29,956 bases of DNA, taken from assembly GCA_964510165.1 (NCBI GenBank), contig CAZEBC010000026.1:1-29956 (forward strand). The letters are read 5' to 3'. Position numbers and translations under genes: made by a program. Numbering within the stretch: position 1 is the stretch's first letter; every line of letters starts with the position of its first letter. This document shows, one piece after another, positions 11,725 to 29,868 of the stretch. This DNA comes from an uncultured bacterium. GTDB lineage: Bacteria; Abyssobacteria; SURF-5. The notes under the pieces were generated by a model. That model saw only the letters and a list, made by a program, of their open reading frames with translations. It made no database searches and was not told the DNA's origin.

Positions 11725-11825
11725 TTTCCTCGAACGGTGCGAAGGATTCCTTCCTGGCAGCCGTTTCTTCTTATCTTATTGCATCCGCATATGTTACACA
11801 GTGAAAGCTTCGCCCCAAAATCGAG

Positions 11826-11840
11826 TGGCATGATATGTGC
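11826..11840 (+). promoter_or_regulatory. sigma54 -24/-12 promoter of the activator gene
   Basis: TGGCATGATATGTGC = GG-N10-GC. Confidence 0.65.
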
Positions 11841-11901
11841 CTTACCAGACTCCATGCAACAAACCAGGTTCACATCGTTTTTCACCGGAAATGGGAGCAT
11901 C

Positions 11902-14890: not shown

Positions 14891-14945
14891 GATTCAATTC
14901 CCGGTGGCTCAGCGAGCGCACGCTGCGAAGAGCCGATTGTTCGAT

Positions 14946-15006
14946 TGAATTCGCATCTGCCATTCTGCAAAGTACGAGTGAATTCGCATCAGCGATTCCG
15001 CAAAGT
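14946..15006. repeat. Tandem imperfect direct repeat, 28 bp x2, 33-bp period
   Basis: TGAATTCGCATCTGCCATTCTGCAAAGT (14946-14973) and TGAATTCGCATCAGCGATTCCGCAAAGT (14979-15006), 25/28 identical. Confidence 0.85.
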
Positions 15007-15012
15007 GTCAGG

Positions 15013-15027
15013 GCAAGTACTGTGCCA
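15013..15027 (-). promoter_or_regulatory. sigma54 promoter (leftward)
   Basis: TGGCAC-AGTAC-TTGC, full consensus. Confidence 0.85.
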
Positions 15028-15288
15028 AGGGGGACGCCTCGAACCGTGCTGAGGCGCGGCCCGACAGTTTGCCTGAGTTTTGCGGCATTCCGGCCAGTCG
15101 TCGGTCCGGCGCGGACATCGCCCGAAATGTTGCGGCCACAGTTGCGCGCAACGTCGCGTTGCGAGCCTTCGCGTCGTTCTGCGACGACGAAACACATTGG
15201 TATCGGCGCATGACGCATCGCGGCAAATGCCATGTTTCTCGATAATATCGTTTGATGTTTGAGGGCGCCGATTCACTGCCGGCCGTGA

Positions 15289-15303
15289 TGGCACAGTTCT
15301 TGC
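15289..15303 (+). promoter_or_regulatory. sigma54 promoter (rightward, qrc-tmc-hmc operon)
   Basis: TGGCAC-AGTTC-TTGC, full consensus. Confidence 0.85.
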
Positions 15304-15385
15304 CAAAACTCTCCAACGGAAGTGATGTGGAAAGCGCGCCACCAGCGTCGCGCTCTCAATGAGAAATTAAGTGAGACCGCCATTG

Positions 15386-16024
15386 ATGAAACCCGAAAAG
15401 AACTCAAACGGCCAGAAATATTTCGGAACCGTGGTCGGCTTCTTTTCGTTCGGACTCGTGCTTTTCCTCCTGTTGGGATGGTTCTTGTTACCCGGTTTGA
15501 GCTACGTCAAGAGCACGCAGCCGGTGAATTACAATCCCCCGCTTCACGTGGAGAGGCTCGGCATCACCTGCGACACATGCCACTTCTTCCATGAGGACGG
15601 GAGCTGGGCCGGAATCCCCACGCTTGAAACATGCATTGATTGTCACGAAAATACGATTGGCGACTCGTCTGAAGAAAAGAAGTTCGTCGAGAATTACGTG
15701 AAGGAAAATCGTGAGCCGCAGTGGGCGCTTTACATCAAGCAGCCCGAGTGCGTGTCGTTCTCGCATTCCTCGCACGTGCGGATGGCGAAGATTGCGTGTG
15801 AAACGTGTCATGGCCCGCAAGGCCATTCGGACGCCGCCGAGTATCTCGCGAACCGCATCACCAAGTATGGTTATGTGGTGTATGATCCGCGCGTTCCGCT
15901 GAATGCCTTCACCATCATGAGCGAGAAGGGCAGGAACGTGTGGGGCACGATGCGGATGGACGAATGCGCGGCATGTCACAGGGCGCGCGGAACGAGCACG
16001 GCCTGTTTCATCTGTCACAAATAG
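15386..16024 (+). CDS. qrcA: Menaquinone reductase multiheme cytochrome c subunit QrcA (5 CxxCH)
   Basis: N-terminal TM; CDTCH, CIDCH, CETCH, CAACH, CFICH; QPECVSFSHSSH; first of a qrcABCD-type set. Alternative start GTG 15371. Confidence 0.88.
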   Translation: MKPEKNSNGQKYFGTVVGFFSFGLVLFLLLGWFLLPGLSYVKSTQPVNYNPPLHVERLGITCDTCHFFHEDGSWAGIPTLETCIDCHENTIGDSSEEKKFVENYVKENREPQWALYIKQPECVSFSHSSHVRMAKIACETCHGPQGHSDAAEYLANRITKYGYVVYDPRVPLNAFTIMSEKGRNVWGTMRMDECAACHRARGTSTACFICHK

Positions 16025-16036
16025 GGACTCGCTGGA

Positions 16037-18430
16037 ATGTCTTGGTTTAAGGAAAAAGCAACCGTAAAAGTTGACCGGAGGACGTTCGTCAAAGGGATGA
16101 CCTTTGCGGGAGGAGCGGCTCTCGGCCTGATGCTCTCGCCGACGCCCTGGTACCTCATGCGAGACGCCGCGTTCTGGACACAGAACTGGGCGTGGCTGCC
16201 GACGCCTTCTCCGGGCGCGCCCTCGTTCGAGGACGCCGTCTGCGGGCTATGCGAGGCCGGATGCGGCATCCGCGTGAGAAAGGTGGACGATCGCCTCGTC
16301 AGGATCGACGGCAACAAGAACCACCCCGTCAACCGAGGCTCGGTCTGTCCGCTCGGGGTCGCTTCGCTCCAGTTGTTGTACAGTCCGGCTCGCATCAAGA
16401 CTCCGATGAAACGAGTGGACGGTTCCTGGCGGCCCGTCTCGTGGGAAATCGCCATAAGAGAGATCAGCCAGCAAATACAAAGCCTCAGGGCGACCGGGCA
16501 ATCCCATGCGATCGCATGCATCACCAACCATCGTAACAGCGCGATAAACCGGATGCTCGAACGGCTGCTCCGCGCTGTCGGGTCCCCCAATTTCGTGCCC
16601 ATGAACAACGGTGTGGACGCCCAGAATATCGTTCACCAACTCATGACCGGCGGGAGCACTGCCGCATATGATATCGAAAACGCCCGCTGCATCCTGAGTT
16701 TCGGATGCAGCCTCTTTGAGGGATGGGGAGCGCCCGGCCGGATGTATCACGCACAGGCGACGTGGCTCAAGAGGCCGAAAGAGTCGCAGGTTGAGGTGAT
16801 TCAGATCGAGCCTAATCTCTCGACCACCGCGAACAAAGCGTCCCAATGGGCGCCAATCACGCCGGGGACCGAGGCCGCGCTCGCCCTTGCAATCGCTCAC
16901 GTGTTGATCAGAGACGAACTCTACAACAAGGCTTTTGTGAAAAAGCACTGTTTCGGCTTCGAGGATTGGACGGACTCGTCCGGCAAGACACACAAGGGCT
17001 TTGCATCCGAGGTGCTCGCGCGGTATTCGCCGCAATCCGTCGAACTCATCACGAAAGTGCCGGCGAGTGAGACGGAAGATATCGCGCGCAGGTTCGCCTC
17101 GAATGGGCCTTCGCTTGCAATCGGCGGCGCAGGTCGGGGAGAAAGGTTTGCCGACCTGTACGCGCTGATGGCCGTCAACAGCCTGAATGCGCTGGTCGGC
17201 AATATCGGTCAGGTCGGCGGCCTTTTCACTCAGGCGGCGGCGCCAGTCAGTCCGCTTCCGCCCGTCACGATGGACGAAGAATCGGCGCGCGGCAACGCGA
17301 CGGCCCGCTGCGACGGAGCGGGAAGCGGGCGGTATCCATTCAGCCCGTCTCTGCCACACAATCTCGATCCGCAAAAAATCAAAGTCTTGTTCATCCATGA
17401 GGCAAACCCGTACTATGCGCTTCGTGACCGAAAATCGGCGGATGGTATTTTCGAGAAAATCCCCTATGTCGTAAGCCTGGCGTCCCACATGGATGAGAGC
17501 GCACAGCGAGCGAACCTGGTCCTCCCTGTGCCAACCCCATTCGAGAGGTGGGACGACCTTGCCGGTGTCACCGGAGTGCCGTATGCGACGTACGGCGTGA
17601 ACCGTCCTCTGATAACCCCCTTGCACGATGCGAGGAACGCAGGCGACATCGCGATAATGATCGCGCGTTCAATGGGCGGCGCGATCTCGGACTCTTTCCC
17701 GTGGAACAACACCGCTGAGGTCGTGGCGGCGCGGGCCAGAGGACTGTACGAATCCGATCGGGGCATGATAAATGAGCCCGTTGACATCGTCTCCTCCGAA
17801 GGGAAGCCCCCGCGGTCGCTCCAGGAAAAATACCCGACATTTTCGACGTTCTGGAGCAGCCTGCTTGCGAACGGCTGCTGGTTCGACCCGGCATTCGAGC
17901 GTGGCAAGTCATCCTTCAGCACGCCGAGCAAGAAGTTCGAGTTCTTCAGCCAGCGACTTCACAAAGAGTTCGGTTTCAGCGACGACCTGAAATGCATGCC
18001 CCACTACATGAAGCCAGCCGCAAAGCCCATAGGCTTTGACCTGACCATTATGCCGGAGGAACTGGTGGCGATGGCGCACGACGGTCTCGGCACGCCTCCC
18101 TTGCTCATCAAGCAACTCAGCGACACGGTGCTCCGCGAGAGCGAGCTATTCGTTCGGATCAATCCGATAACCGCCATGCATCACGGCGTCAAGGACGGGG
18201 ACAAGGTGATCCTGGAATCATCCCGTGGCAAAGTGAGCGTGCGGGTGCACACCTTTGCGGGAGTGCATGAAGGAATAGTGCTGATTCCCCTGGACTTCGG
18301 GCATACAGGGTACGACCGCTACCTGCAAAACAAGGGCGTGAACGCGCGCCAGTTGCTCGAAGTCGCGTATGACGACATCACGGGGTTGGCCTCTTGTTGC
18401 GGTACTCCGGGAAAGATCAGAAAAGCCTAA
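16037..18430 (+). CDS. qrcB: Menaquinone reductase molybdopterin-oxidoreductase-like subunit QrcB
   Basis: Tat RRTFVK, SPTPWYLMRDAAFWTQNW, CGLCEAGC...CPLG, C-terminal MopB-CT-like RINP...DFGH. Confidence 0.88.
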   Translation: MSWFKEKATVKVDRRTFVKGMTFAGGAALGLMLSPTPWYLMRDAAFWTQNWAWLPTPSPGAPSFEDAVCGLCEAGCGIRVRKVDDRLVRIDGNKNHPVNRGSVCPLGVASLQLLYSPARIKTPMKRVDGSWRPVSWEIAIREISQQIQSLRATGQSHAIACITNHRNSAINRMLERLLRAVGSPNFVPMNNGVDAQNIVHQLMTGGSTAAYDIENARCILSFGCSLFEGWGAPGRMYHAQATWLKRPKESQVEVIQIEPNLSTTANKASQWAPITPGTEAALALAIAHVLIRDELYNKAFVKKHCFGFEDWTDSSGKTHKGFASEVLARYSPQSVELITKVPASETEDIARRFASNGPSLAIGGAGRGERFADLYALMAVNSLNALVGNIGQVGGLFTQAAAPVSPLPPVTMDEESARGNATARCDGAGSGRYPFSPSLPHNLDPQKIKVLFIHEANPYYALRDRKSADGIFEKIPYVVSLASHMDESAQRANLVLPVPTPFERWDDLAGVTGVPYATYGVNRPLITPLHDARNAGDIAIMIARSMGGAISDSFPWNNTAEVVAARARGLYESDRGMINEPVDIVSSEGKPPRSLQEKYPTFSTFWSSLLANGCWFDPAFERGKSSFSTPSKKFEFFSQRLHKEFGFSDDLKCMPHYMKPAAKPIGFDLTIMPEELVAMAHDGLGTPPLLIKQLSDTVLRESELFVRINPITAMHHGVKDGDKVILESSRGKVSVRVHTFAGVHEGIVLIPLDFGHTGYDRYLQNKGVNARQLLEVAYDDITGLASCCGTPGKIRKA

Positions 18431-18435
18431 GCACG

Positions 18436-19185
18436 ATGAACACGAGCGTGGAAAAGCAAACACTTGTCCGGTACGGCATGGTCATAGATTTGGATACATG
18501 CACTGGCTGCGGCAACTGCGCCGTCGCCTGCCACATGGAAAACAATGTCCCATTCCGCGTTGACGAGAGCGACAAGTCGCGCAACATCGAATGGCTACGC
18601 ATTTACAGGGTCGACAACGGCGCCGAGTATCCGCATGCGCGCATGGCGTATTTCCCCAGGCCTTGCATGCAGTGCGACCACCATACCCCCTGCGTTTCCG
18701 TCTGCCCGGCGAGCGCCACGAACTATGACGAGCTTACCGGAGTGGTGGATCAAATAAACACCCGCTGCATAGGATGCCGTTATTGCATGGCGGCGTGTCC
18801 GTATATGGTCCGCTGTTTCAACTGGTGGGACCCCGTTTGGCCGAAGGAAATGGAGAGGCACCTGAACCCTGACGTTGCCGTGCGCATGCGGGGCGTCGTC
18901 GAGAAGTGCACCTTCTGTTCGCATCGCTATCTGAAAGCCAAGAACAAGGCACACAACGAGGGCCGCAACTATCTCAAGGAAGACGAATATGTGCCCGCGT
19001 GCGTCGAGGCCTGCCCCGTTGGGGCAATGCATTTCGGCGATCTCAGCAATCCCGAACATGAGGTCGCACGGTTGATCAAAAGCCCGCGCGCATTCCGGCT
19101 GCTTGAGAAACTGCACACCGAGCCGAAGGTCTATTACATGAGTTCGCAGGAATGGGTCAGGAAACTCGCGGACAATCCTGCATGA
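18436..19185 (+). CDS. qrcC: Menaquinone reductase iron-sulfur subunit QrcC
   Basis: YGMVIDLDTCTGCGNCAVAC, PCMQC...CVSVCP, CIGCRYCMAACP, RMRGVVEKCTFC, PACVEACP. Confidence 0.9.
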   Translation: MNTSVEKQTLVRYGMVIDLDTCTGCGNCAVACHMENNVPFRVDESDKSRNIEWLRIYRVDNGAEYPHARMAYFPRPCMQCDHHTPCVSVCPASATNYDELTGVVDQINTRCIGCRYCMAACPYMVRCFNWWDPVWPKEMERHLNPDVAVRMRGVVEKCTFCSHRYLKAKNKAHNEGRNYLKEDEYVPACVEACPVGAMHFGDLSNPEHEVARLIKSPRAFRLLEKLHTEPKVYYMSSQEWVRKLADNPA

Positions 19186-19203
19186 ACGATGTGCCCGTGC
19201 GGC

Positions 19204-19243
19204 GGGCGGCCACTCGTGGCGAGCCACGCAGGGCCGCCCCTAC
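19204..19243 (-). repeat. GTAG-family REP-like hairpin between qrcC and qrcD
   Basis: Minus strand GTAGGGGCGGCCCTGCGTGGCTCGCCACGAGTGGCCGCCC; outer stem GGGCGGCC/GGCCGCCC, inner CGTGGC/GCCACG. Confidence 0.7.
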
Positions 19244-19272
19244 ACCTAATCTGAAAGGAAGAGGCCGATCGG

Positions 19273-20502
19273 ATGTCTGGCGAACATGAAATACCGAAAT
19301 TAGAGCGGTGTTCCCCGCGAAAGTTTGTGTTGTGGCTGAGCTTCTGGGGCTTGTTGCTTGCATGGGGCCTGTATGCCGCGTTCCTCTGCCTGTTCAAAGG
19401 ATTGAACCAGACCGGCATGAACAACTATTTTGTGTTCGGGCTGTGGATCACGGTGGACCTCGCCATCATCGCCCTCGGAGCCGGAGCGTTCTTCAGCGGA
19501 TTCCTATTCTATATCCTTAAGCTCGATTACCTGAAGGACCTGATAGGCGCCGCCGTGGTCATCGGATTTATCTGTTATAGCGGCGCAATCGGCATGCTGA
19601 CCATTGACATAGGCCAGCCGCTGCGCGGCTACTTCAGCTTCATGCATGCGAACGTGCATTCAATGCTGACCGAGGTCATTTTCTGCATCACGTGCTATCT
19701 GTTCGTGTTGACCATCGAGTTTGTCCCGCTCGTTGCCGAGAACAAGACAATCAGTCAATTCCCCCTGTTCAAATATGTAGGCGAGAATCTGCATGGAATC
19801 ATGGCCGTGTTTGCGCTCGTCGGGACTTTCCTCTCCTTCTTTCATCAAGGGTCGCTCGGAGGAATGTTCGGCGTCCTGTTCGCGCGACCGTTCTCATACC
19901 GGACCGGCGTCGCCATCTGGCCTTGGACATTCTTCCTGTTCATCTTGTCGGCAATCGCATCGGGACCGGCGCTGACCACCCTTGTCGTTTGGACTACCCA
20001 GAAGCTCACGCGGCGACAACTCGTCCGACGGTCCACGCTTTCGAAACTCGCGAAGTTGTCCGCCGTGCTGTTTGCCGTCTATCTGGTGCTCAAGTCGGCC
20101 GATACGGTGTATTGGGCGAACGTGACCGCACCCGCGAAGGGGTTCAATTTCACCGCGTTCTACAAAGGTCCCTACGGGATGGAACTGCTGTTCCTCGAGC
20201 TGTTCGTGTTCGGAATAGTCCCGGCGGTCCTGCTCCTGATTCCGCGGGCGCGCGATTATGACCTGTCACTTGTCACCGGTTGTTTGTTCATATGTCTTGG
20301 TGTCGTCTTGAACCGCTTTGTGATGACGATACAGACGCTTTCGATACCCGTGCTCCCGTTCGAGCGGTTCGTCGCCTACGACCCCACATGGCAGGAATGG
20401 GCTATTGCGGTTGCAGTCATCGGATACGGAGTCATCGTGTATTCACTATCGTATCGTTACTTGCATCTGTTTCCGCGTGAAAAGGAACTCAACGCGACTT
20501 GA
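19273..20502 (+). CDS. qrcD: Menaquinone reductase integral membrane subunit QrcD (NrfD/PsrC family)
   Basis: FGLWITVDLAIIALGAGAF, DIGQPLR, HANVHSMLTEV, SFFHQGSLGG, LNRFV, YDPTWQEW. Confidence 0.92.
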   Translation: MSGEHEIPKLERCSPRKFVLWLSFWGLLLAWGLYAAFLCLFKGLNQTGMNNYFVFGLWITVDLAIIALGAGAFFSGFLFYILKLDYLKDLIGAAVVIGFICYSGAIGMLTIDIGQPLRGYFSFMHANVHSMLTEVIFCITCYLFVLTIEFVPLVAENKTISQFPLFKYVGENLHGIMAVFALVGTFLSFFHQGSLGGMFGVLFARPFSYRTGVAIWPWTFFLFILSAIASGPALTTLVVWTTQKLTRRQLVRRSTLSKLAKLSAVLFAVYLVLKSADTVYWANVTAPAKGFNFTAFYKGPYGMELLFLELFVFGIVPAVLLLIPRARDYDLSLVTGCLFICLGVVLNRFVMTIQTLSIPVLPFERFVAYDPTWQEWAIAVAVIGYGVIVYSLSYRYLHLFPREKELNAT

Positions 20503-20523
20503 AACCGGGGAGGTCGAGGCGCC

Positions 20524-20736
20524 ATGCTTCCGACAACGTTTGAATTCAGATGGGACGCGGGCCACATGATCTTCTTTGGCGTGTTCTACGCCGTTATCGC
20601 GGTCGTGATGACCAGCCTCTTTTTCGTCGTCGCGAAATCCGTGACCGATGTGTATCGGACATTGAGGTCCGAGCCGGAGGCCGGCCCAACCGAGAACAAG
20701 CGGCCTCAGCGAGCCGGGGTCAACCCCGAAACCTAA
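20524..20736 (+). CDS. Small single-TM protein downstream of qrcD
   Basis: 70 aa, FRWDAGHMIFFG then ~22 hydrophobic residues; SD GAGG; tight spacing inside the operon. Confidence 0.75.
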   Translation: MLPTTFEFRWDAGHMIFFGVFYAVIAVVMTSLFFVVAKSVTDVYRTLRSEPEAGPTENKRPQRAGVNPET

Positions 20737-20750
20737 AGGATACCAATAGT

Positions 20751-22061
20751 ATGGATGCTCACGTGCAGAACATGGAGACAACCTTGCAGAAAGTTGCCGC
20801 GTCCGAGCCCGGCTGGGACTGGGAAACAGACGAAAAGCTCGTCGCCGATATTTCTCAAATGAGAGAGCGCTTCCCGGAGGTCCATCAGTTTACGGTCAGC
20901 CCGGACGGCGAGAGGATCGCCGCGCCCGTCAAGACCGAGGACGGCCAATTCACTATATGCGTCAACGGCGAGCCATGGGAGCGGTCGTTCGAGAAGGCGT
21001 GGTATGTGAAGTTTAGCCCTGATGGCAGACTCACCGCCCTCGTTCGGGCGGATGACGCCTGGACCGTCGCCGTCGAGGGCGACCCCTGGGAGCAGACGTT
21101 CGAATACGTGTGGAACACCACCTTCAGCGAGGACGGCAGCACGGTTGCCGCTCAGTGCAAGCGCGAGATGGACTACGGCGTGATTGTCAACGGTCAGGCA
21201 TGGAGCAATACCTTTGTATCCACCAGGGGATTGGCCGTGAGCCCGAACGGCGAGAGAGTCGCCGCCGTCGTTCAGTCAAAGCCGCTCAAAGAGGCCGACA
21301 TCTTCGGATTCCTCGAGGGGACATGGACCGTCGCAGTCAATGACAAGGTCTGGGACCGCAACTTCATCAACGTCTATTCTCCTACTTTCAGCTCCGATGG
21401 ACGACATGTGGCGGCAGAGGTGAGACTCGGCATATGCGAATATACCGTCGCCAGGGACGGACAGCCATGGGAGCAGAGGTTCGGCTGCGTGTGGGAACCC
21501 GGTTTCAGGCCCCAGCGCGGCTCGGTGCTGGCCCCCGTCAGAACCGCAGGGAAATGGATTCTGGTTGAGGACGGGCGTCCGTTGTGGAGCGGCCGCTACG
21601 ACCAGTTGTGGAGACAGAAGGTCAGTCCCGATGGTCGCTCCATCGCAGCGGTGGCGGCGCCAACGTTCGGCAAGTGGACCATCACCGTTGATGACACCCC
21701 GTGGAAGAAGACCTATGACGAATGCGTCCTCGAACCGTTCTTCTCGCCCGACGGCAGGCACGTCGCCGCTATAGTCAAGGAACAGAACCGATGGACCATC
21801 GCAGTTGACGGCGCCCCGTGGAATGAGACGTTCGATATGGTGTGGAATCCCGCGTTCAGTCCCGACGGCCAGACCGTTGTCGCCAAGGTCGAACGCGGCG
21901 GAGCCTTCACTGTCGCGGTGAATGGCAAGCTGTGGAACAGAAAATTCGAGATGCTCTGGGAGCCTGTGTTCAGCCCTGACGGCACAAAGGCGCTGATCAA
22001 GGCGGTCGAGGACGGCGTCTATTACCGCCGAATCGTCAGGATAAATGAACTGCCGGCATAA
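20751..22061 (+). CDS. tmcD: Tmc complex subunit TmcD (Trp-rich beta-propeller)
   Basis: WDWE start, repeated FSPDG...WTVAVDGxPW blades; precedes tmcC-tmcB; SD AAAGGA. Confidence 0.85.
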   Translation: MDAHVQNMETTLQKVAASEPGWDWETDEKLVADISQMRERFPEVHQFTVSPDGERIAAPVKTEDGQFTICVNGEPWERSFEKAWYVKFSPDGRLTALVRADDAWTVAVEGDPWEQTFEYVWNTTFSEDGSTVAAQCKREMDYGVIVNGQAWSNTFVSTRGLAVSPNGERVAAVVQSKPLKEADIFGFLEGTWTVAVNDKVWDRNFINVYSPTFSSDGRHVAAEVRLGICEYTVARDGQPWEQRFGCVWEPGFRPQRGSVLAPVRTAGKWILVEDGRPLWSGRYDQLWRQKVSPDGRSIAAVAAPTFGKWTITVDDTPWKKTYDECVLEPFFSPDGRHVAAIVKEQNRWTIAVDGAPWNETFDMVWNPAFSPDGQTVVAKVERGGAFTVAVNGKLWNRKFEMLWEPVFSPDGTKALIKAVEDGVYYRRIVRINELPA

Positions 22062-22081
22062 GTGAGTGAGGAGAGCCGAAC

Positions 22082-22729
22082 ATGTACGAGTTCGTAAGCG
22101 GACCGCTTGTCTGGGTAGCGTTCCTCGTGTTCTTCGGCGGGTCTCTTTACCGCCTCATCTGGATGGCGTCAACTGCGAGGAAAGACAGGGTCGTCTACCC
22201 CTACATGAGCCTGAAATTCGGACTGAGGTCCATCTTGCACTGGATAATCCCCTTCGCCAACGTGAGCATGCGGAAACAGCCGGTGATGACGGCGGTCGCG
22301 TTCATCTTTCACCTCTGCCTGTTAATCACGCCGATTTTCCTGTTGGCGCACAACGTGATGCTGCGCGAATCATGGGGAATCAAGTGGTGGAGCCTGCCGC
22401 CGATCGCCGCCGATATCATGACGGTGGCCGTTGTCATCGGAGGCCTGTTCTTCATCGGAAGGAGATTGCGCCTGCCTGAAGTGAAGAACGTCACTACCTA
22501 TTCTGATTTCCTGCTGATCGCATTAGTGCTTGCGCCGTTTGTGACGGGCTTCATCGCCTATCATCAGTGGTTCGCTTACAAGACTATGGTGATTCTCCAC
22601 ATCGTGACCGGTGCGCTCATGCTGATGGCTATCCCCTTCACGCGGCTGGCGCATATGCTGTTCTTCCTTTTCACGCGAGCGTACATGGGCTCTGAGTTCG
22701 GTTTCGTCAGACATTCGAGAGACTGGTAG
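22082..22729 (+). CDS. tmcC: Tmc membrane cytochrome b subunit TmcC (NarI-like)
   Basis: MYEFVSGPLVW, His pairs FIFH..LAH and ILH..LAH, PFTRLAHM, GSEFG. Confidence 0.88.
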   Translation: MYEFVSGPLVWVAFLVFFGGSLYRLIWMASTARKDRVVYPYMSLKFGLRSILHWIIPFANVSMRKQPVMTAVAFIFHLCLLITPIFLLAHNVMLRESWGIKWWSLPPIAADIMTVAVVIGGLFFIGRRLRLPEVKNVTTYSDFLLIALVLAPFVTGFIAYHQWFAYKTMVILHIVTGALMLMAIPFTRLAHMLFFLFTRAYMGSEFGFVRHSRDW

Positions 22730-22759
22730 ACCGGAGCCTTGAAATGGAGGTTGTGTCGC

Positions 22760-24142
22760 ATGGCCGAAAATAATAAGAGCCAGGCCGTTATCGAGCCGGT
22801 TGCGGAACACGCGGCCAGGAAACTGACTCCGGAACAAATGGTAAAGGACCCGGGGCTGGACGAAACGATCAAGAAGCTCAGTCTCGAACAGATCGAGCGA
22901 ACCATAAATCAGGTGCTCAAAGGTGAGGGCGCACGCCTCAAGGTATACCTGGACACGTGCGTTCACTGCGGCCTGTGCTCCGAGGCCTGCCACACGTTCC
23001 TCTCACGCGGCAGAGACCCGCACTATTCACCCGTCGGCAAGGTGAAAAATACATTATGGGAGATGGTCAAGCGAAAGGGAAAGGTCGACCACGAATTCAT
23101 CCGGAACGCCTCTCGAATCGCGTTCACCGAATGCGCCGTGTGCCGCCGTTGCAGCATGTATTGCCCGTTCGGGATCGATATCGCGTACCTCCTCATCGTC
23201 GTGCGCCGCATTCTCAACTTCCTTTACGTGGTGCCCGCATACCTTCAGGACACCACGAACAGCCACGCAGTCACCATGAACCAGATGTGGGTGCAGCAGG
23301 ACGAATGGATCGACACCCTCCAGTGGCAGGAGGAAGAGGCGCAGATGGAGATGCCCAAGGCGAAGATTCCCCTCGACAAGGAGGGCGCCGAGGTCATGTA
23401 TTCGGTCATCGCGCCCGAACCCAAAATCCTCGCCCAGCTCCTCGCGTATATGGCGCAGATTATGACCGTCGCCGGCGTCGATTGGACCATGCCGGCCACC
23501 GACGGATGGGACAACAGCAACATGGCCATGTACTCGGGCGATTTCGAGACGATGGCGCGCGTGGAGCGCCTCTTCTATGACACCGCCCTGCGCCTTAAGG
23601 TAAAGAAGATCGTGATGGGCGAGTGCGGACACGCATTCCGGGGCGCCGCTTACGACGGCCCAAAATGGCTGTCGTGGCGGTTCCCGCCCATCCCGCTCAT
23701 TCACGCCATCGAATGGTATTACGAACTGCTCACCAGCGGAAAAATCAAGATCGCCAAAAAATTCACCGAACCCGTGACCGTGCAGGACCCCTGCAATGTG
23801 GTCCGCGGCAGGGGACTCCATCACATGCTGCGTTACATCATGAACGCCTTGTGCGAGGATTTCAGGGACGTGGACCCCAGGTTCGAGCACAACTATTGCT
23901 GCATGGCTGGCGGCGGAACCGTCAACTGCGGACCGCCTTGGACCAAGTCGAGGGTGACGAGTAATCGGGTAAAGGCGGACCAGCTCAAGGCCACCGGCGC
24001 CAAATACGTGGTCACTCCTTGCCACAACTGTCACAGCGGCATCGAGCAGATCATCAATTTCTACAAGCTCGGCATCCACGTGAAGTTCATAGCCGAAATC
24101 TTGATCGAATGCATGGAAATTCCTCAGCACCTGAAAGCGTAA
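22760..24142 (+). CDS. tmcB: Tmc cytoplasmic Fe-S subunit TmcB (HdrD/DsrK-like, CCG domain)
   Basis: CVHCGLCSEAC, CAVCRRCSMYCPFGID, GECGH, DPCN...CCMAGGG...PCHNC; SD GGAGG before ATG 22760. Confidence 0.88.
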   Translation: MAENNKSQAVIEPVAEHAARKLTPEQMVKDPGLDETIKKLSLEQIERTINQVLKGEGARLKVYLDTCVHCGLCSEACHTFLSRGRDPHYSPVGKVKNTLWEMVKRKGKVDHEFIRNASRIAFTECAVCRRCSMYCPFGIDIAYLLIVVRRILNFLYVVPAYLQDTTNSHAVTMNQMWVQQDEWIDTLQWQEEEAQMEMPKAKIPLDKEGAEVMYSVIAPEPKILAQLLAYMAQIMTVAGVDWTMPATDGWDNSNMAMYSGDFETMARVERLFYDTALRLKVKKIVMGECGHAFRGAAYDGPKWLSWRFPPIPLIHAIEWYYELLTSGKIKIAKKFTEPVTVQDPCNVVRGRGLHHMLRYIMNALCEDFRDVDPRFEHNYCCMAGGGTVNCGPPWTKSRVTSNRVKADQLKATGAKYVVTPCHNCHSGIEQIINFYKLGIHVKFIAEILIECMEIPQHLKA

Positions 24143-24146
24143 AGGG

Positions 24147-25706
24147 ATGAAGAAAATGCGACGTCAATGGATAATCAGCCTCCTCGGAATGCTTGCTTGT
24201 TCAGCCCCTCTGTTCGTCGGCGCCGGCTGCGGGCAACCGGCAGAAGGAATTTCTATGCCGGCGAATAAAGCCGCATCCGAACCGCCGCCCCAAACCCTCA
24301 TCGAGTCGCGCGTCCTGATGGCTCGGCCCGAAGTGTTCGATACGTTTGAACGGCCGCCCGTTGTCTTCGACCATCGAAAACATACCGAAACGCTCAGCGA
24401 GGAAGGCTGTCAAACCTGCCACCCTGCCGATGCTGAGGGAAAAGTCAATTATGAATATGTGGCATGGCGCGAACTGGCCGACAGGCGCGCGTTGATAGAC
24501 GCCTATCACGAAAGATGCAACCAGTGCCATTACGAAGGTGCAACAAGCGGAGGCAAGAAGGTCCGCGCGCTCACCTGCGGCGAATGCCACCTCGATACGA
24601 CCGAGTATCTCAAGCCCGAATGGTATCCGGCCACCTTCGACCATTTTCCGCATATCGCCGCCATGGAGAAAGGTTGCGACACCTGTCACCACAGGTACGA
24701 CGAACAACAGAAGAAGCTGGTGTATGAGAAGGGACAGGAAGAATCCTGCGGCAATTGCCACAAGGACACGCCTGAAGAGAACAGGGACCCGCTCCGCAAG
24801 GTCGGCCACACCGGCTGCATCGGTTGCCACGAGAAGGAATACCTCGCGGGAAATAAGGAAATCGACCCGTACTCCTGTAACGAATGTCATCGGCCCGAGG
24901 CAAAACCCAGTGTGCCGGACGAGCGGGAAATGGTGGCCCGCGTGTATCAGGCCAATCCCGGCCAACTCCTCATCAGCTATCCCGGCGCGATTTTGCCGCC
25001 CGTCGCCTTCGACCACGAAAAGCACGACCCGAAGCAGGAATGCGCGAAGTGCTGTCACAACTTCCACGTGAGAACGCTCGTCGCCATGGACATGCGCTTC
25101 AAGCAGACTTCCGACTCCTGCCAGCAATGTCACGAAAAGGCCGACATCTCAGTGAGGCCAGGCTGCGTTCAGGCCGACAAGATTTACCACGACCCCGAAT
25201 CGCCCAACAGTTGCATCGGGTGTCACACTCAGAAAAACAAGGAAGACGGAGAGGAGAAGAGGCCCGTGAGCTGCAAGGGATGCCATAAAGGCACCCTCAG
25301 CGCCGCTCCCAGACCCGTTGCAATGGAACCCCTCGACGCCGAAAAGGGGCCGGAGACCTATGTCATCGCCCGGCTCTCAAGAAAATATCTTCCCGTCAAG
25401 TTCCCGCACCTTCAACACACGAAGATGATCCCGGACTGCCAGTCCTGCCATCACCACGGACCGGAAAAACAGATGCCCACATGCAACACCTGCCACGGCG
25501 AGCCGCTCGACTTCATGAAACTCACCAAGCCGCGGCTCATCAGCGCCTATCACCGCATGTGCATGGGCTGCCATAGAGACATGGGAACGGGGCCGGTCAC
25601 TTGCGCCAAGTGCCACGAGGAACGAGAAACCATCTATCCCTCAAGCCAACACCTGACGACATCTGTGACGCCCGCGGAAGCAGTTGTATTGGAAGAGAAG
25701 CTCTGA
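24147..25706 (+). CDS. hmcA: High-molecular-weight cytochrome c3-type protein, HmcA-like, 15 heme motifs
   Basis: 14 CxxCH plus CAKCCH arranged 3+4+4+4; HmcA-like segments CHHRYDEQQKKLVY..EESC and AYHRMCMGCH; signal peptide with possible lipobox Cys. Confidence 0.8.
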   Translation: MKKMRRQWIISLLGMLACSAPLFVGAGCGQPAEGISMPANKAASEPPPQTLIESRVLMARPEVFDTFERPPVVFDHRKHTETLSEEGCQTCHPADAEGKVNYEYVAWRELADRRALIDAYHERCNQCHYEGATSGGKKVRALTCGECHLDTTEYLKPEWYPATFDHFPHIAAMEKGCDTCHHRYDEQQKKLVYEKGQEESCGNCHKDTPEENRDPLRKVGHTGCIGCHEKEYLAGNKEIDPYSCNECHRPEAKPSVPDEREMVARVYQANPGQLLISYPGAILPPVAFDHEKHDPKQECAKCCHNFHVRTLVAMDMRFKQTSDSCQQCHEKADISVRPGCVQADKIYHDPESPNSCIGCHTQKNKEDGEEKRPVSCKGCHKGTLSAAPRPVAMEPLDAEKGPETYVIARLSRKYLPVKFPHLQHTKMIPDCQSCHHHGPEKQMPTCNTCHGEPLDFMKLTKPRLISAYHRMCMGCHRDMGTGPVTCAKCHEERETIYPSSQHLTTSVTPAEAVVLEEKL

Positions 25707-25713
25707 AGAAGCG

Positions 25714-25775
25714 GCGGGAATGATAGCTCTGGCGAGCATGTCCAAAATGTCATTCCCGCAAAAGCGGGAATCCAG
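25714..25775. repeat. REP-like palindrome GTCATTCCCGCAAAAGCGGGAATCCAG with upstream inverted half-copy
   Basis: 25749-25775 ATTCCCGC-AAAA-GCGGGAAT; GCGGGAATGA (25714-25723) can also pair with TCATTCCCGC (25750-25759); lies between the convergent cytochrome gene and tRNA. Confidence 0.75.
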
Positions 25776-25865
25776 GATTGATTCTTCTTGAGTCAAGTCT
25801 CGCTTGTGGCGGGGGTGAAAGCGCTCGCAATGATGGGGGGTCCACAAGTCCTTGTCTCTCAACGG

Positions 25866-25950
25866 TGCCGGAGGAGGGAATCGAACCCTCATGGTGCCAA
25901 GCACCGGGGGATTTTGAGTCCCCTGCGTCTACCAGTTCCACCACTCCGGC
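25866..25950 (-). tRNA. tRNA-Leu (anticodon CAA)
   Basis: Acceptor GCCGGAG/CTCCGGC, D-loop GGAACTGGTAGA, anticodon arm GGGGA-CTCAAAA-TCCCC, long variable arm, T-arm GAGGG-TTCGATT-CCCTC; discriminator A followed by CCG, so CCA is not fully encoded. Confidence 0.97.
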
Positions 25951-25965
25951 AACTCAACCGCCTTA

Positions 25966-25994
25966 AAATTACCAAATTCGCCGGGCTTTGTCAA
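25966..25994 (-). promoter_or_regulatory. sigma70 promoter of tRNA-Leu
   Basis: TTGACA, 17 nt spacer, TAATTT with extended TG. Confidence 0.8.
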
Positions 25995-25999
25995 TCCGA

Positions 26000-27034
26000 T
26001 TACTCGTACAACGCCCTGGTTTCAGGGTCCATTGCGGCGAGCCGTTTGGCCGCCTCCTCCGGCGGCATAGACTCGACCGAACCATCGGTACTCTGCACCA
26101 CGCAGCCGCTTTCGGTCAGCATCTTGTAACGCCTCTTCCGTTCTTCTTTGTCGGGCGCGCACACAAGCTGACACATGCCGCACGTCATGCTGAACTTGCC
26201 GTCTATCAACGGGTGAATCCGCGCCCCTTCCATGGCCGGTCTGCGAGTGTGGATATCAAGATGCTGCATGAGGGCTGGCCCGAAATCTTCATCTCTTACC
26301 GGAATCGGGAACCGGCCGGGCGACCACGTGGACCACTTGCCCGAGGGATGCAGCCCGGTGAATCCGCCGCACACGTATCCGCATCGGTTATACTCGCGAC
26401 GCTTCGCGTAGGTGATCTCAACGCCCCCAATCGTCACTCGTTCTTCTTCCTCCGGGTCCATCAGGCCCGACAGACAGGATGCCATGCAGATGCGGCAGCC
26501 GTCGCAGTAATTCTCTTCTTTCGGAAGCGGGGCGGTCGGCTCCAGCTCGGCCGTCGTGACAACGCCGCCGAGAATTATCGCAGCGCCCTCGTTTTTCGTT
26601 ATCGCGTTGCCCGAGAGGCTCATATGCGCGACTCCGCAACGCACCGCAAGGTATCGGAGCGAGATGTCGGGCTTCATGTCAAACATCCCGCGCGGCGTGT
26701 CCTCCCTGTACACCTGGTTCGACGCCACCGGATAAGAGGGGTACCCCTTCTGCTCCAGGAATCTCGCGAGGTCGAGCGCGATGCCGCTTGCCACCTTGTT
26801 GGCACGGGTGTTGTCTTTCTGCTGCGAAAGGTGGTCCCTCTTCATCAGGTACGGCGGAATGAATTTCTGGTCGAGCGGGACCGCGAAGCTCACCGCCGAC
26901 TTCGCGCCCGGCAGGACGTACTCAAGGTCCACTGAGGGCGGCCCGCCCGCAAGCGTTTCAGCCGTCGCAAATCCGATTGCGCACGCGCCCTCCCCCGTCA
27001 CCCTGTCGATTATAAGCTGCTCTAAACTGTACAT
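26000..27034 (-). CDS. QueG/reductive-dehalogenase-like 2x[4Fe-4S] (probably cobalamin) protein, paralog 2
   Basis: LPGAKSAVSFAV, ISLRYLAVRCGVAHMSLSGN, CDGCRICMASC, RCGYVC, CGMCQLVC; SD GAGGAG; no Tat signal. Confidence 0.75.
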   Translation of the reverse strand: MYSLEQLIIDRVTGEGACAIGFATAETLAGGPPSVDLEYVLPGAKSAVSFAVPLDQKFIPPYLMKRDHLSQQKDNTRANKVASGIALDLARFLEQKGYPSYPVASNQVYREDTPRGMFDMKPDISLRYLAVRCGVAHMSLSGNAITKNEGAAIILGGVVTTAELEPTAPLPKEENYCDGCRICMASCLSGLMDPEEEERVTIGGVEITYAKRREYNRCGYVCGGFTGLHPSGKWSTWSPGRFPIPVRDEDFGPALMQHLDIHTRRPAMEGARIHPLIDGKFSMTCGMCQLVCAPDKEERKRRYKMLTESGCVVQSTDGSVESMPPEEAAKRLAAMDPETRALYE

Positions 27035-27061: not shown

Positions 27062-28102
27062 TTACTCGTAACACGCGCGTGTTTCCGAATCCATCGCGGC
27101 GACGCGCTCGGCCGCTTCGGCGGGCGACACGACATCGAGCGAGCCGTCCGTATTCTGCACGACGCATCCGCTCTCGGTCAACACCTTATAGCGGCGCTTC
27201 CTCTCTTCCTTGTCCGCGACGCAGATGATCTGGCAATTGCCGCACGTGAGCCCGATGCGTTTGTCGAGAAGCGGGTTGTAGAAACCGCCGTCGAGCGAGG
27301 GCCTTTGGAGATAAGCTTCCACCCCGCGCGCCAATGCCCGCCTGAATTCCCGGTCTGTTTCGGGTATCGGCAGCCGGCCGGGCGACCAGGTTGACCACTT
27401 TCCCGACGGATGAAGCCCGGTGAATCCGCCGCAGACGTATTCGCAGCGATGATAGTTGCGCCGCTTGGAATACGTGTGCTCAGTCCCGCCGAGCGTGACG
27501 CGCGCCTCTTCCTCCGGGTCCATCAGGCCCGACGCGCACGACGCGATGCACAGGCGGCAGCCGTCGCAGTAGTTCTCTTCCTTGGGCAAAGGCGGCGTGG
27601 GCTCCAGTTCCGCGCTCGTGACCACTCCTCCGAGCACAATCGCCGCGCCCTCCTTTTTCCTGAGCACGTTGCCGGACAAACCAAACGACGCGACACCCGA
27701 GGCAACCGCAAGATATCGGTGCGAGATGTCGGGTATCAAGTCGAGGATACCCCCCGGCGAACTGTCCGCCCTGTAGAAGTTGTTCGAGTTAAGTGGACGC
27801 GAGCGGTACCCACGCTGCTCCAGATAACTCGCAAGCTCAAACGAGATGCCGCTCGAAATGATGTGCGCACGGATGTGGTCGTGCTGATAGGAGCGACGGT
27901 CCTTCTTTGACAGAAACGGCTCTATCCGGCTCTGGTCAAGGGCGACGGCAAAGCTCACCGCCGACTTCGCCTCCGAAAGAACGTAGCTGATATCGGCAGT
28001 CGGCGGCCCGCCCGCGAGCGTTTCTCTCGTCGCCACCCCCACCGCGCAGGCGAAACCCTCGCACATTACATAGTCCATAACGGTCTGGGTCAAACTGTCC
28101 AC
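27062..28102 (-). CDS. QueG/reductive-dehalogenase-like 2x[4Fe-4S] (probably cobalamin) protein, paralog 1
   Basis: AKSAVSFAV, ISHRYLAVASGVASFGLSGN, CDGCRLCIASC, RCEYVC, CGNCQIIC; GTG start with SD AGGAG. Confidence 0.75.
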   Translation of the reverse strand: MDSLTQTVMDYVMCEGFACAVGVATRETLAGGPPTADISYVLSEAKSAVSFAVALDQSRIEPFLSKKDRRSYQHDHIRAHIISSGISFELASYLEQRGYRSRPLNSNNFYRADSSPGGILDLIPDISHRYLAVASGVASFGLSGNVLRKKEGAAIVLGGVVTSAELEPTPPLPKEENYCDGCRLCIASCASGLMDPEEEARVTLGGTEHTYSKRRNYHRCEYVCGGFTGLHPSGKWSTWSPGRLPIPETDREFRRALARGVEAYLQRPSLDGGFYNPLLDKRIGLTCGNCQIICVADKEERKRRYKVLTESGCVVQNTDGSLDVVSPAEAAERVAAMDSETRACYE

Positions 28103-28151: not shown

Positions 28152-29240
28152 TCATATGGCGTCGTTGACAGAACACGTCATCCCCGGCGCCTCCCCCGGC
28201 ATAAAGCATTGCAGACAGCCGGTGCATTCATTTACTTCATTGGCGCGCCCTGTGAGCGACTTGGTCACGAGTTCAGGGTCGGCGATCAGTCCCCGCCCAA
28301 TGGCGACCATGTCGGCCTTGCCGTCACGAAGGGCAGCTTCGGCCTGCTCGAGTCTGATGATGCCGCCGACGCCGATGACGGGGATGCTGACGCGCCTCTT
28401 GATTTCGCCCGCCAACCTGAGCAGTTCTCCCTCGGCGGCTTCCTGAATCATGCGCGGGCCGGAATCAATGCCGCCCGCGGAGACATGAATCACGTCGAGG
28501 CCGCTTTCGACGAACATGGCGATCAGTTCGGCGCTTTCCTCCAGCGTCAGACCGCCATCAACGTATTCTTCAACACTCATCCGCAATCCGAGAACGAAAT
28601 CCTCGCCTACCCGCTTACGCGCCAAACGAAGTATTTCCCGCACGATGCGGCTGCGGTTCTCGGTGCTGCCGCCGTACTTGTCAGTTCGCTGATTCGAAGC
28701 GGGCGAGAGGAACTGATTCAGCAGAAAACTATGCGCTCCGTGGAATTCGACGAGGGACGCTCCGGCGTCCTTTGCCGCCTCCGCCGCATGCGCGAACTGA
28801 CCGATAAGCTCCTCCACCTCTCGGCCCGTCAACTCGCGCGGCGTCGCCGCGCCCATCGGCGAAGGGATCGGCGATGGACCGACAACGTCGCCCCCGGCAA
28901 GTTCAAGCGACAAGACCCGACCGCCATGATTCAGTTGCACGGCGGGGACCGAGCCGGCCATCCTGATGGCCGCGAACAGTTCTCGCGCCGAATCCACGTG
29001 GCTGTCGTCGTAAAGACATAGCGACTGCGGGCCCAGCCGAGACCTGGGCGAAATGCCCGTCGCGCCGACGATCGACAACCCCACATTGTTACGAGCGATA
29101 GTCTCATGAAATCGAATGAGACGCTCGCTCGCCATGCCGTCCGGCGTCGCATAATTGGTCATGACCGGCGGGAACACAACCCTGTTGCGAAAGGTCGTAT
29201 TCTTGATAGTGAACGGTTGTCTGAGCAGGTCGTACGCCAT
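28152..29240 (-). CDS. NADH:flavin oxidoreductase / Old Yellow Enzyme family with C-terminal Fe-S motif
   Basis: FRNRVVFPP, QLNHGGR, EFHGAHSFLLNQFLSP, NQRTDKYGGSTENRSR, GRGLIADP, CTGCLQC-X10-CSVN. Confidence 0.92.
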   Translation of the reverse strand: MAYDLLRQPFTIKNTTFRNRVVFPPVMTNYATPDGMASERLIRFHETIARNNVGLSIVGATGISPRSRLGPQSLCLYDDSHVDSARELFAAIRMAGSVPAVQLNHGGRVLSLELAGGDVVGPSPIPSPMGAATPRELTGREVEELIGQFAHAAEAAKDAGASLVEFHGAHSFLLNQFLSPASNQRTDKYGGSTENRSRIVREILRLARKRVGEDFVLGLRMSVEEYVDGGLTLEESAELIAMFVESGLDVIHVSAGGIDSGPRMIQEAAEGELLRLAGEIKRRVSIPVIGVGGIIRLEQAEAALRDGKADMVAIGRGLIADPELVTKSLTGRANEVNECTGCLQCFMPGEAPGMTCSVNDAI

Positions 29241-29298: not shown

Positions 29299-29868
29299 TT
29301 ACAACAGGCGCCGCAGCGTCCCAATGCTTCTTTCCATGACTTGCGGGTCCCGATGCGTTTTCCTCAAGAGGAACGACCCTTGAATCACGGCGATGGCAAA
29401 CTCGGCAACTTCCTTCGAAGCCAAGTCCTTCGGGAAATCCCCCGATTCCTTCCCCTCTTCAAGACATTCCTCCAATCGCTCGGCGATGTTGCGAAAGAAA
29501 TCGCTGAGAGTCTGGCGGAATGGCTCGTGGATACAACTCATTTCCTGGGCCAGATTCCCGAATGGACAGCCCAATTCACCCTCGGCCGAACAGCCGATCG
29601 AGAGGATCCTGTCGAGCAGCGCATCCAAACGCTCTGACGGGCGCAACTCGTGGTTGTCGAGCGACGGCGCCACGACAGATTCGTACCACCAGCGCATCCT
29701 CCGCCCCAGCACTTCAAAACCTAGCTGTTCCTTGGTCTCAAAATGGTAGTAGAAGTTGTTTCTAAACACTGACGACGCATCAAGAATATCCTGCACGCTG
29801 GTGTTGTGGTATCCCTTGGCATGGAAGAGTCTCGCCGCCGCCGAGACCAGTTGTTTTCTGGCATCCAT
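29299..29868 (-). CDS. TetR/AcrR family repressor (NemR/LmrA-YxaF-like)
   Basis: AARLFHAKGYHNTSVQDI...FYYHFETKE HTH; C-terminal GCPFGNLAQEMS; SD GGAGG. Confidence 0.93.
   Translation of the reverse strand: MDARKQLVSAAARLFHAKGYHNTSVQDILDASSVFRNNFYYHFETKEQLGFEVLGRRMRWWYESVVAPSLDNHELRPSERLDALLDRILSIGCSAEGELGCPFGNLAQEMSCIHEPFRQTLSDFFRNIAERLEECLEEGKESGDFPKDLASKEVAEFAIAVIQGSFLLRKTHRDPQVMERSIGTLRRLL

Follow-up and report, generated by a model that had tools for sequence, protein, structure and literature searches.

The Tmc, Hmc, Qrc and DsrMKJOP complexes connect periplasmic or quinone electrons to the cytoplasmic reduction of sulfate and sulfite, an exchange argued mainly from Desulfovibrio, in which Qrc, Tmc, Apr and Dsr work with periplasmic hydrogenases; in Hmc and DsrMKJOP, a quinone-linked NrfD-type module and a CCG-type module are joined within one complex. 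The closest described cytochromes are HmcA of Desulfovibrio (PDB 1GWS/1H29/2CVC, 2E84 and 1Z1N), which has 16 haem sites and is encoded with hmcBCDEF, the nine-haem cytochrome c NhcA (PDB 19HC, 1OFW and 1DUW), and TmcA, the acidic type II tetrahaem c3 of TmcABCD. The window analysed here is a stretch of 29,956 bp from an uncultured bacterium of the Abyssobacteria lineage SURF-5 (assembly GCA_964510165.1, contig CAZEBC010000026.1, positions 1 to 29,956 of the forward strand). An open reading frame (ORF) at 24147..25706 on the forward strand, with an uninterrupted translation of 519 amino acid residues (P0001), encodes a 15-haem class III cytochrome c. Its gene occupies the place of tmcA in a tmc cluster rather than lying in an hmc operon, and directly follows qrcABCD-tmcDCB. 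Homology, haem and His counts, clade membership, synteny and co-occurrence together make it probable that the protein serves a Tmc-type complex as its periplasmic cytochrome subunit, in which role it would replace the tetrahaem TmcA and possibly link Qrc to Tmc.

In the excerpts available from Price (2014; PMC4215793), Tmc is described as having a periplasmic type II c3 subunit, as accepting electrons from the periplasmic c3 pool, as required for H2 use and as probably feeding DsrC; an NrfD-like subunit is assigned to Hmc and not to Tmc, and Qrc is described as transferring electrons from c3 to menaquinone. Some syntrophic sulfate reducers have tmc operons without TmcA, according to the excerpt available from Murali (2023).

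Haem layout and family placement of the cytochrome

A script search for haem-binding motifs located 14 CxxCH sites and one CAKCCH site among the 34 Cys and 32 His residues of P0001, in the 3+4+4+4 order that an initial annotation, made by a model from the sequence, had proposed. The elements singled out in that annotation were likewise all recovered: CAKCCH as the eighth site (25041..25058, residues 299-304), a lone Cys340 (codon 25164..25166) within RPGCVQ (residues 337-342), FPHLQH in the last domain (residues 419-424), and the MLAC and GAGC motifs, with Cys18 and Cys28. The motif His residues of the CxxCH sites are 92, 128, 148, 181, 205, 228, 248, 329, 360, 380, 435, 450, 476 and 490. As delimited by motifs and alignment, domain I (24366..24590) is a c7-like module for three haems, with HxxH at 76/79, CQTCH, His121, CNQCH and CGECH, and Pfam Cytochrome_C7 matches residues 72-148 of the protein. 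Each of the remaining domains has four haem sites: domain II (24636..24890) contains HxxH at 166/169, CDTCHH, CGNCH, His221, CIGCH and CNECH; domain III (25008..25286) contains HxxH at 290/293, CAKCCH-x-F-H307, CQQCH, His348, CIGCH and CKGCH; and domain IV (25401..25616) contains FPHLQH (His421/His424), CQSCHH, CNTCH, His469, CMGCH and CAKCH. In each block an HxxH is followed by haem sites with c3-type extra His residues, and the 15 non-motif His are kept throughout the clade described below; the 3+4+4+4 grouping is supported because this conserved pattern matches the blocks. The haem pattern is not a chance one, since the ORF has the highest CxxCH count of all frames in the 4.17-Mb genome (runner-up, 11) and matches Pfam Cytochrom_CIII (PF02085) with 149 bits in four stretches. 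Long minus-strand ORFs overlapping the gene gave zero family matches and are taken as by-products of high G+C.

Among PDB sequences, phmmer aligned residues 38-493 of P0001 with HmcA of D. vulgaris Hildenborough and Miyazaki (E 1e-46, 1gws), with weaker matches to D. gigas HmcA (E 1e-34) and to nine-haem cytochromes (1e-14 to 3e-17). With an AlphaFold2 model built from 120 sequences (mean predicted local distance difference test score, pLDDT, 71.6; predicted template modelling score, pTM, 0.47), the first eight Foldseek matches were all HmcA chains (E 2.9e-21 to 3.5e-16); model confidence was low in the linkers between modules (residues 27-46, 254-268, 386-397 and 494-519). Taken together, the Pfam, phmmer and Foldseek matches identify P0001 as a full-length homologue of HmcA. 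The alignment to the HmcA structure that the initial annotation had suggested as a check therefore bears out the relationship over the full length (E 1e-46), while its designation of the protein as an HmcA variant stands for homology and fails for identity, given the subthreshold HmcA model score (242 < 400 bits) and the tmc context.

At E ≤ 1e-10, a word-indexed search gave 417 proteins, the best 120 of which were compared: 20 protein clusters forming a clade (P0001-P0020, query counted) and 100 others. P0002-P0020 share 46-71% identity with the query, after which the next match falls to 32%, and in a 40-row tree the 20 clade members formed one group (Shimodaira-Hasegawa approximate likelihood-ratio test, SH-aLRT, 100) on a stem branch of 0.67. 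All 20 clade sequences have 14 CxxCH sites and one C-x-K/N-x-C-H at site 8; of the 100 non-clade relatives, 92 have exactly 16 CxxCH, three have 14, three 15, one 17 and one 18. The NCBIfam HmcA model (NF045713, cut-off 400) gave P0001 241.8 bits in two stretches and clade members P0006, P0010 and P0020 230-239 bits, against 451-612 bits for the canonical controls P0034, P0066, P0021 and P0230 (= PDB 1Z1N), all four of which pass. On the TmcA model (NF045722, cut-off 114), the whole of P0001 reached 140.3 bits, only as the sum of four stretches; each single domain scored 27.7-48.6 bits, under the cut-off. By these scores and the tree, P0001 is a distinct paralogue, and not an orthologue, of HmcA. 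A metagenome scan for further clade members gave one fragment only (L018, 72% identity, on a 1120-bp contig). Within the canonical group, three HmcA-like proteins of Pseudodesulfovibrio (P0096, P0111 and P0120) have only 14 CxxCH and zero CX3CH or CX4CH sites.

An exhaustive representative search (1020 proteins at E ≤ 0.001) yielded a sister group, P0121, P0123 and P0124, whose members are closer to the clade than any other protein (E 1e-93 to 1e-67) and each have 16 CxxCH in a 4+4+4+4 layout; the genomic relatives of this group are Myxococcota, Phycisphaerales and Gammaproteobacteria metagenome-assembled genomes (MAGs). Like the clade, these sister proteins have no site 11 and no domain IV insertion, possess CH-x-F-H and an insertion after site 8, and are encoded after tmcD-tmcC-tmcB (loci L038-L040). 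Unlike the clade, they carry a full set of four haems in the first domain and a plain CxxCH at the site-8 equivalent, and their genes are followed by HmcB/HybA-like and HmcC/HybB-like genes, with no qrcABCD before. Another protein, P0128, has 15 sites in the 3+4+4+4 layout but a plain CxxCH at site 8. Sister-group proteins scored 135-254 bits on the HmcA model (under 400) and 114-202 bits on the TmcA model, reaching the cut-off. The 20 clusters and the 16-haem sister group constitute a subfamily without a name, lying between the HmcA and TmcA models of NCBIfam.

Of the described cytochromes, HmcA is the best match of P0001 in both sequence and fold and shares with it the opening three-haem module and, after this, c3-like modules of four haems; it has 16 sites whereas P0001 has 15, without site 11, and is encoded with hmcBCDEF rather than with tmcBCD and qrc. 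TmcA shares with P0001 the cluster position, adjoining tmcB, tmcC and tmcD, but its model covers 125 positions and four haems, as compared with 519 residues, 15 haems and four modules; the gene order here is D-C-B-cytochrome, and in D. vulgaris it is presumably A-B-C-D. The c3-like domains of NhcA also align with P0001 (Foldseek E about 1e-6), although NhcA spans only half its length, and the nine-haem model gives canonical HmcAs 158-208 bits versus 57 bits for P0001.

The qrc-tmc cluster

The NCBIfam matches on the genes preceding the cytochrome gene, all on the forward strand, are as follows: qrcA, the multihaem cytochrome c subunit of menaquinone reductase with five CxxCH (15371..16024; NF041781, 196.1 bits, cut-off 180); qrcB, a molybdopterin-binding-like subunit (16037..18430; NF041783, 435.9 bits, just under the cut-off of 440); qrcC, the iron-sulfur subunit (18394..19185; NF041782, 404.9 bits, cut-off 400); qrcD, the NrfD-type integral membrane subunit (19273..20502; NF041784, 585.6 bits, cut-off 570); tmcD (20550..22061; NF045725, 560.2 bits, cut-off 440); tmcC, a NarI-type membrane cytochrome b anchor (22082..22729; NF045723, 313.3 bits, cut-off 240); and tmcB, a cytoplasmic Fe-S/CCG-domain protein resembling DsrK and HmcF (22739..24142; NF045724, 700.5 bits, just under the cut-off of 735). 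On other models TmcB scored 396.5 bits (HmcF) and 197.2 bits (DsrK), with Pfam Fer4_8 and CCG matches, and TmcC reached 216 bits on the HmcE model versus 313 on its own; His53, 77, 90, 173 and 191 of TmcC are invariant among 11 relatives. No hmcB, hmcC or hmcD was found next to the cytochrome gene, the neighbours matching QrcABCD, TmcD, TmcC and TmcB. The genes tmcD-tmcC-tmcB-cytochrome follow one another on one strand with gaps of 4-20 nt, the cytochrome gene starting 4 nt past the tmcB stop, and a tRNA-Leu gene lies 3' of it on the opposite strand. The tmcD ORF has an overhang of 67-87 codons 5' of its family-matching part (20550-20810), with relatives aligning from residues 1, 32, 68, 68 and 90; because the TmcD family match begins at residue 88, the true start is probably near 20751.

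Searches with the window proteins (tblastn) found the order qrcB-C-D-tmcD-C-B-cytochrome in five of five related loci, one of which ends within qrcD at a contig end, and TmcB directly 5' of the cytochrome in 6/6 further genome loci (11 related loci in total). Among 11 genomes of the phylum of the window, with the cytochrome counted at E ≤ 1e-100, the cytochrome, TmcD and QrcD are all present in the same seven and all missing from the same four, one of which is only 77% complete. The related loci include Candidatus Abyssobacteria bacterium SURF_17, whose class NCBI places under Hydrogenedentota. In the sister group, 3/3 loci have the order tmcD-tmcC-tmcB-cytochrome-FeS protein-NrfD protein; at L038, NCBIfam gave TmcD 501, TmcC 272, TmcB 711, HmcB 357 (< 420) and HmcC 268 (< 550) bits. 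In both groups, therefore, the gene for a large poly-c3 cytochrome accompanies both a TmcCB(D) module and a quinone module of the NrfD type, the latter HmcBC-like in the sisters and Qrc here. In three Deltaproteobacteria MAG loci (L007-L009), tmcC-tmcB precedes a short c3-like match of about 125-140 residues, with no TmcD match in the DNA examined, so the order C-B-cytochrome is not confined to the large-cytochrome forms.

No separate TmcA was found in the genome, the TmcA model matching only the four modules of P0001 and two weaker frames, and no small stand-alone tetrahaem c3 was seen in it. A second qrc locus (contig C15:33803-40362) consists of a gene for a 460-residue decahaem cytochrome with no NCBIfam match, preceding QrcABCD (QrcA 192 > 180, QrcB 459 > 440, QrcC 351 < 400, QrcD 602 > 570 bits). 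The contig ends 330 bp after this locus, and a histidine kinase gene and an HmcC/HybB-like gene lie upstream. Each of the seven cluster-bearing genomes of the phylum has at least two QrcD matches. A complex prediction of TmcC with cytochrome residues 47-495, run with no controls, returned a score of 0.00 (mark 0.32) and is evidence neither way.

Haem ligands, the eighth site and the N-terminus

In a MAFFT alignment of the 120 sequences, 15 haem-site columns are common and the eleventh-site column is filled in 0/20 clade members and in 100/100 others, with sites 1-10 and 12-16 of HmcA-type proteins aligning one-to-one with the clade sites. The 92 proteins having exactly 16 sites show a gap of 8-10 residues between sites 10 and 11 and of 11-17 residues between sites 11 and 12; the tenth and eleventh sites of the clade are 9-17 residues apart (median 16.5). 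A Gly at His+2 (CxxCHxG) occurs at the eleventh site of the clade (17/20) and at canonical site 12 (69/92), not at canonical site 11. By alignment, then, CKGCH of P0001 is canonical site 12, and it is site 11, counted along the sequence, that the clade does not have; a phmmer pairing of CKGCH with D. vulgaris site 11, with a gap at 367-412, was overruled by the spacing and the CHxG context together with two multiple alignments. By comparison with the nine-haem cytochrome structure, the isolated haem, which lies between the two c3-like domains at the C-terminal end, belongs to the fourth site among the last nine. On this site numbering, the absent haem is probably the inter-domain haem that the initial annotation described as lost. 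That description is right in that P0001 has one site fewer than HmcA; loss itself is unproven, and because the 16-haem 4+4+4+4 sister proteins are also without site 11, the site may never have been present in the clade.

Counting as conserved those columns with His in at least 18/20 sequences, the clade has 30 conserved His columns for 15 haems, namely 15 motif His and 15 distal His (residues 76, 79, 121, 166, 169, 182, 221, 290, 293, 307, 348, 421, 424, 436 and 469). The other 100 relatives have 31 conserved His columns for 16 sites, as would be expected if one haem of the canonical proteins had no distal His; in HmcA, an Ile reportedly caps the five-coordinate haem 15. The last domain of the clade has the plain c3-type FPHxxH and no insertion, with His424 in 20/20, as compared with FPHxxI in the 100 others (Ile 88/100, His 4/100), after which come about 18 inserted residues and an invariant His. 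We infer that in HmcA proper the displaced His would serve the extra haem, leaving one haem five-coordinate. The supposition that this His may be restored in P0001 agrees with the FPHxxH in 20/20 and with the count of 30 His for 15 haems, on which all 15 haems of the clade could be bis-histidine (bis-His) ligated. Bis-His ligation of every haem would make the protein an electron wire without an open catalytic site.

At site 8, Cys299, Cys303 and His304 are invariant in the clade alignment and Lys301 is present in 19/20, residue 302 being Ala in seven sequences, Cys in five, Ser in four and Thr in four. Since Cys303 is invariant and residue 302 variable, the site is of the CX3CH type, the second of the adjacent Cys pair binding the haem. 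With this form in 20/20 clade members, the notion of CAKCCH as a CxxC-CH oddity of this gene alone was ruled out. Canonical proteins have CxxCHH at this position; the clade has CH-x-F-H, with His307 in 20/20 and a gap in the others, and in P0001 the site is followed by a 12-residue insertion relative to D. vulgaris HmcA. Seven canonical HmcAs contain a CX3CH at site 9, among them D. gigas HmcA, whose structure is solved (PDB 1Z1N). Cys302 and Cys340 occur together in P0001-P0005 (5/5) and in 0/15 other clade members, and Cys is not among the five commonest residues of the 100 other relatives at either column. P0001-P0004 form one clade in the tree (support 99) and P0005 is unplaced, so that one or two origins account for the Cys pair. 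The co-occurrence is consistent with a disulfide, as weak evidence.

The N-terminal signal/anchor region (24147..24230, forward strand) has a basic start; AlphaFold2 places a helix over residues 3-27 and, after it, a linker of low confidence (27-46). Met4 (24156) may be the true start of the cytochrome, because it is better spaced from an AGGG overlapping the tmcB stop and because P0003 starts at the equivalent Met. A PROSITE-like lipobox rule was applied to 17 clade N-termini: both Cys18 and Cys28 of P0001 satisfy it, as do 7/17 N-termini overall, and in those outside the rule the aligned residues are G-[YF]-G or G-G. In the column of Cys28, the 17 clade rows with a residue comprise nine Cys, six Tyr or Phe and two Gly. 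A lipid anchor is plausible for P0001, though not a trait of the family. A twin-arginine (Tat) signal was ruled out, the RRQW of P0001 being unconserved in the clade.

Proposed function, electron partners and flanking genes

In the proposed mechanism, the exported cytochrome with its four c3-type modules would serve as the electron wire of a Tmc-type complex made up of the cytochrome, TmcC (cytochrome b), TmcB (Fe-S/CCG) and TmcD. Periplasmic carriers would exchange electrons with the haem chain, and electrons would traverse the membrane via the b-haems of TmcC to the clusters of TmcB, which would reduce a cytoplasmic thiol/disulfide carrier, most likely DsrC. Because the cytochrome gene directly follows qrcABCD-tmcDCB, the long haem chain would probably also exchange electrons with QrcA, joining the NrfD-type module to TmcCB. 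A bolder version, put forward tentatively and open to considerable doubt, is that QrcABCD, the 15-haem cytochrome and TmcBCD form one supercomplex, in which an all-bis-His chain would wire the NrfD module to TmcC/TmcB and on to a thiol carrier such as DsrC. Such a supercomplex, if real, would recreate the two-module design of Hmc and DsrMKJOP out of separate components, and would do so in a lineage that has no soluble c3 and does not belong to the classical sulfate reducers.

The genome encodes DsrAB, DsrC and a complete DsrMKJOP, all above cut-offs, as well as AprA. The dsrAB genes lie in an exact 2622-bp direct repeat (contig C8:7818-10439 and 22106-24727) that flanks aprA, with dsrC and dsrMKJOP downstream; aprA is separated from the repeat ends by 2063 nt and dsrC by 2420 nt. 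Among the relatives that yielded no dsrA, aprA in three genomes and dsrC in four start at about 2.0-2.7 kb from the beginning of a contig, and relative G002 has two dsrA copies 14.4 kb apart. These similar distances suggest that dsrAB may have been lost from the relatives in assembly or binning instead of being absent. In the excerpts available from Momper (2018; PMC6121073), no dsrAB is reported for the named MAGs of the lineage, which could have the same assembly cause.

Several observations weigh against a Tmc subunit that feeds sulfite reduction. Physical association of the cytochrome with TmcC or QrcA, its electron partners and the flow direction are what we infer from the genes; bis-His ligation is read from counts of conserved His; and the structural model is moderate, with template modelling (TM) scores of 0.32-0.36 to HmcA, because it leaves the modules unplaced relative to each other. 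The TmcB and QrcB scores fall slightly under their NCBIfam cut-offs. The dsrA gene was found in only 2/7 cluster-bearing genomes, so a lineage-wide link to sulfite reduction can only be tentative, although the contig geometry points to assembly loss. The search for a [NiFe] hydrogenase large subunit (PF00374) gave none in this 97%-complete genome and a match in only 1/11 phylum genomes, so that the classical route from H2 through c3 to Tmc cannot be assumed.

Among the alternatives, it is very improbable that P0001 is a true HmcA of an Hmc complex with one haem lost. The full-length likeness to the solved HmcAs, on which phmmer (E 1e-46) and Foldseek agree, and the common layout of three haems followed by c3-like domains speak for it; yet the score of 241.8 bits is far from the HmcA equivalog cut-off of 400 that 4/4 canonical controls pass, a long and fully supported branch divides the clade from the canonical group, and the 4+4+4+4 sisters are equally without site 11. 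The neighbourhood points the same way, with no adjoining HmcB, HmcC or HmcD and with neighbours that favour TmcB over HmcF (700 vs 397 bits) and TmcC over HmcE (313 vs 216 bits). A free or lipid-tethered periplasmic hub, replacing soluble c3 and serving Qrc, Tmc and other partners with no fixed place in Tmc, is unlikely, although it would suit the missing small tetrahaem c3, the position of the gene at the end of a joint qrc-tmc cluster, the flexible low-confidence linker after the signal region and the lipobox-like Cys; the decahaem cytochrome preceding the second qrc locus further suggests a large cytochrome partner of its own for each Qrc. The 4-nt gap to tmcB, TmcB directly upstream in 11/11 related loci and the sister proteins inside tmc-hmcBC-like clusters argue instead for a Tmc subunit, and the lipobox occurs in only 7/17 N-termini.

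Electron flow in the oxidative direction, from a cytoplasmic sulfur carrier through TmcB, TmcC, the cytochrome and Qrc to menaquinone, seems quite unlikely. It would dispense with the periplasmic [NiFe] hydrogenase that was not found as a feeder, it accords with the annotation of Qrc as a cytochrome:menaquinone reductase, and sulfite oxidation is weighed for named relatives in the available excerpts of Momper (2018; PMC6121073). The genome nevertheless has the reductive-type set DsrMKJOP and DsrC, with AprA and DsrAB, and sequence sets no direction of electron flow. As to the paired cysteines, it is conceivable but doubtful that Cys302 and Cys340 give a structural or redox-active disulfide near haem 8, or that Cys340 is a haem ligand (His/Cys, as in DsrJ). 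The two residues co-occur in 5/5 proteins and in none of the 15 other clade members, at columns that are not commonly Cys in the 100 relatives; even so, one or two origins on the tree explain the pair, both Cys are missing in 15/20 clade members, and 15 conserved distal His suffice for 15 haems, making a Cys ligand unneeded. The reading of P0001 as the cytochrome subunit of a Tmc-type complex, for which we give the mechanism above, remains the one we favour.

On this reading the locus is a conserved arrangement in which a Tmc-type complex with an HmcA-like 15-haem wire is genetically joined to Qrc, which makes it a natural system in which to ask if Tmc requires a partner of the NrfD type. If the supercomplex exists, the family with 15 (3+4+4+4) or 16 (4+4+4+4) haems and without the isolated haem would be what many uncultured lineages natively use as "TmcA", and might be the form that gave rise to HmcA through gain of the isolated haem. 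The 15-haem protein is predicted to be without a high-spin haem, which mass spectrometry and electron paramagnetic resonance could easily check. The significance is moderate and lies mainly with specialists in anaerobic respiration, for whom the predictions are clear and inexpensive. Literature searches on Tmc, Hmc, Qrc and Abyssubacteria turned up no account of a 15-haem Tmc cytochrome or of a qrc-tmc cluster, and neither is mentioned in the excerpts available from Momper (2018; PMC6121073).

The cluster may be sigma-54 dependent. A putative promoter with the exact consensus TGGCAC-N5-TTGC (15289..15303, forward strand) lies 68 nt before qrcA, and a second exact match (15013-15027) is on the minus strand; these are the only two in the window, they face apart, and both fall in the intergenic region 14891-15370 that separates a DUF1847 gene (13943-14890, minus strand) from qrcA, with about 0.06 exact matches expected in 30 kb at equal base frequencies. 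Allowing up to two mismatches, the pattern showed no enrichment (28 matches vs 30.1 expected), and a promoter and terminator consensus scan of 14600-26100 gave counts equal to shuffled sequence (3 vs 4.3 and 11 vs 11.2). A gene for a PAS-domain sigma-54 activator (11701-13242, forward strand) lies 2 kb upstream. Beyond the cytochrome gene, all on the minus strand, are tandem paralogues of 344 and 346 residues, 64% identical (26000-27034 and 27062-28102), with weak QueG/reductive-dehalogenase-type Fe-S matches of 25-27 bits, far under the cut-offs, followed by a gene for a flavin oxidoreductase of the Old Yellow Enzyme family (28152-29240) and one for a TetR regulator (29299-29868).

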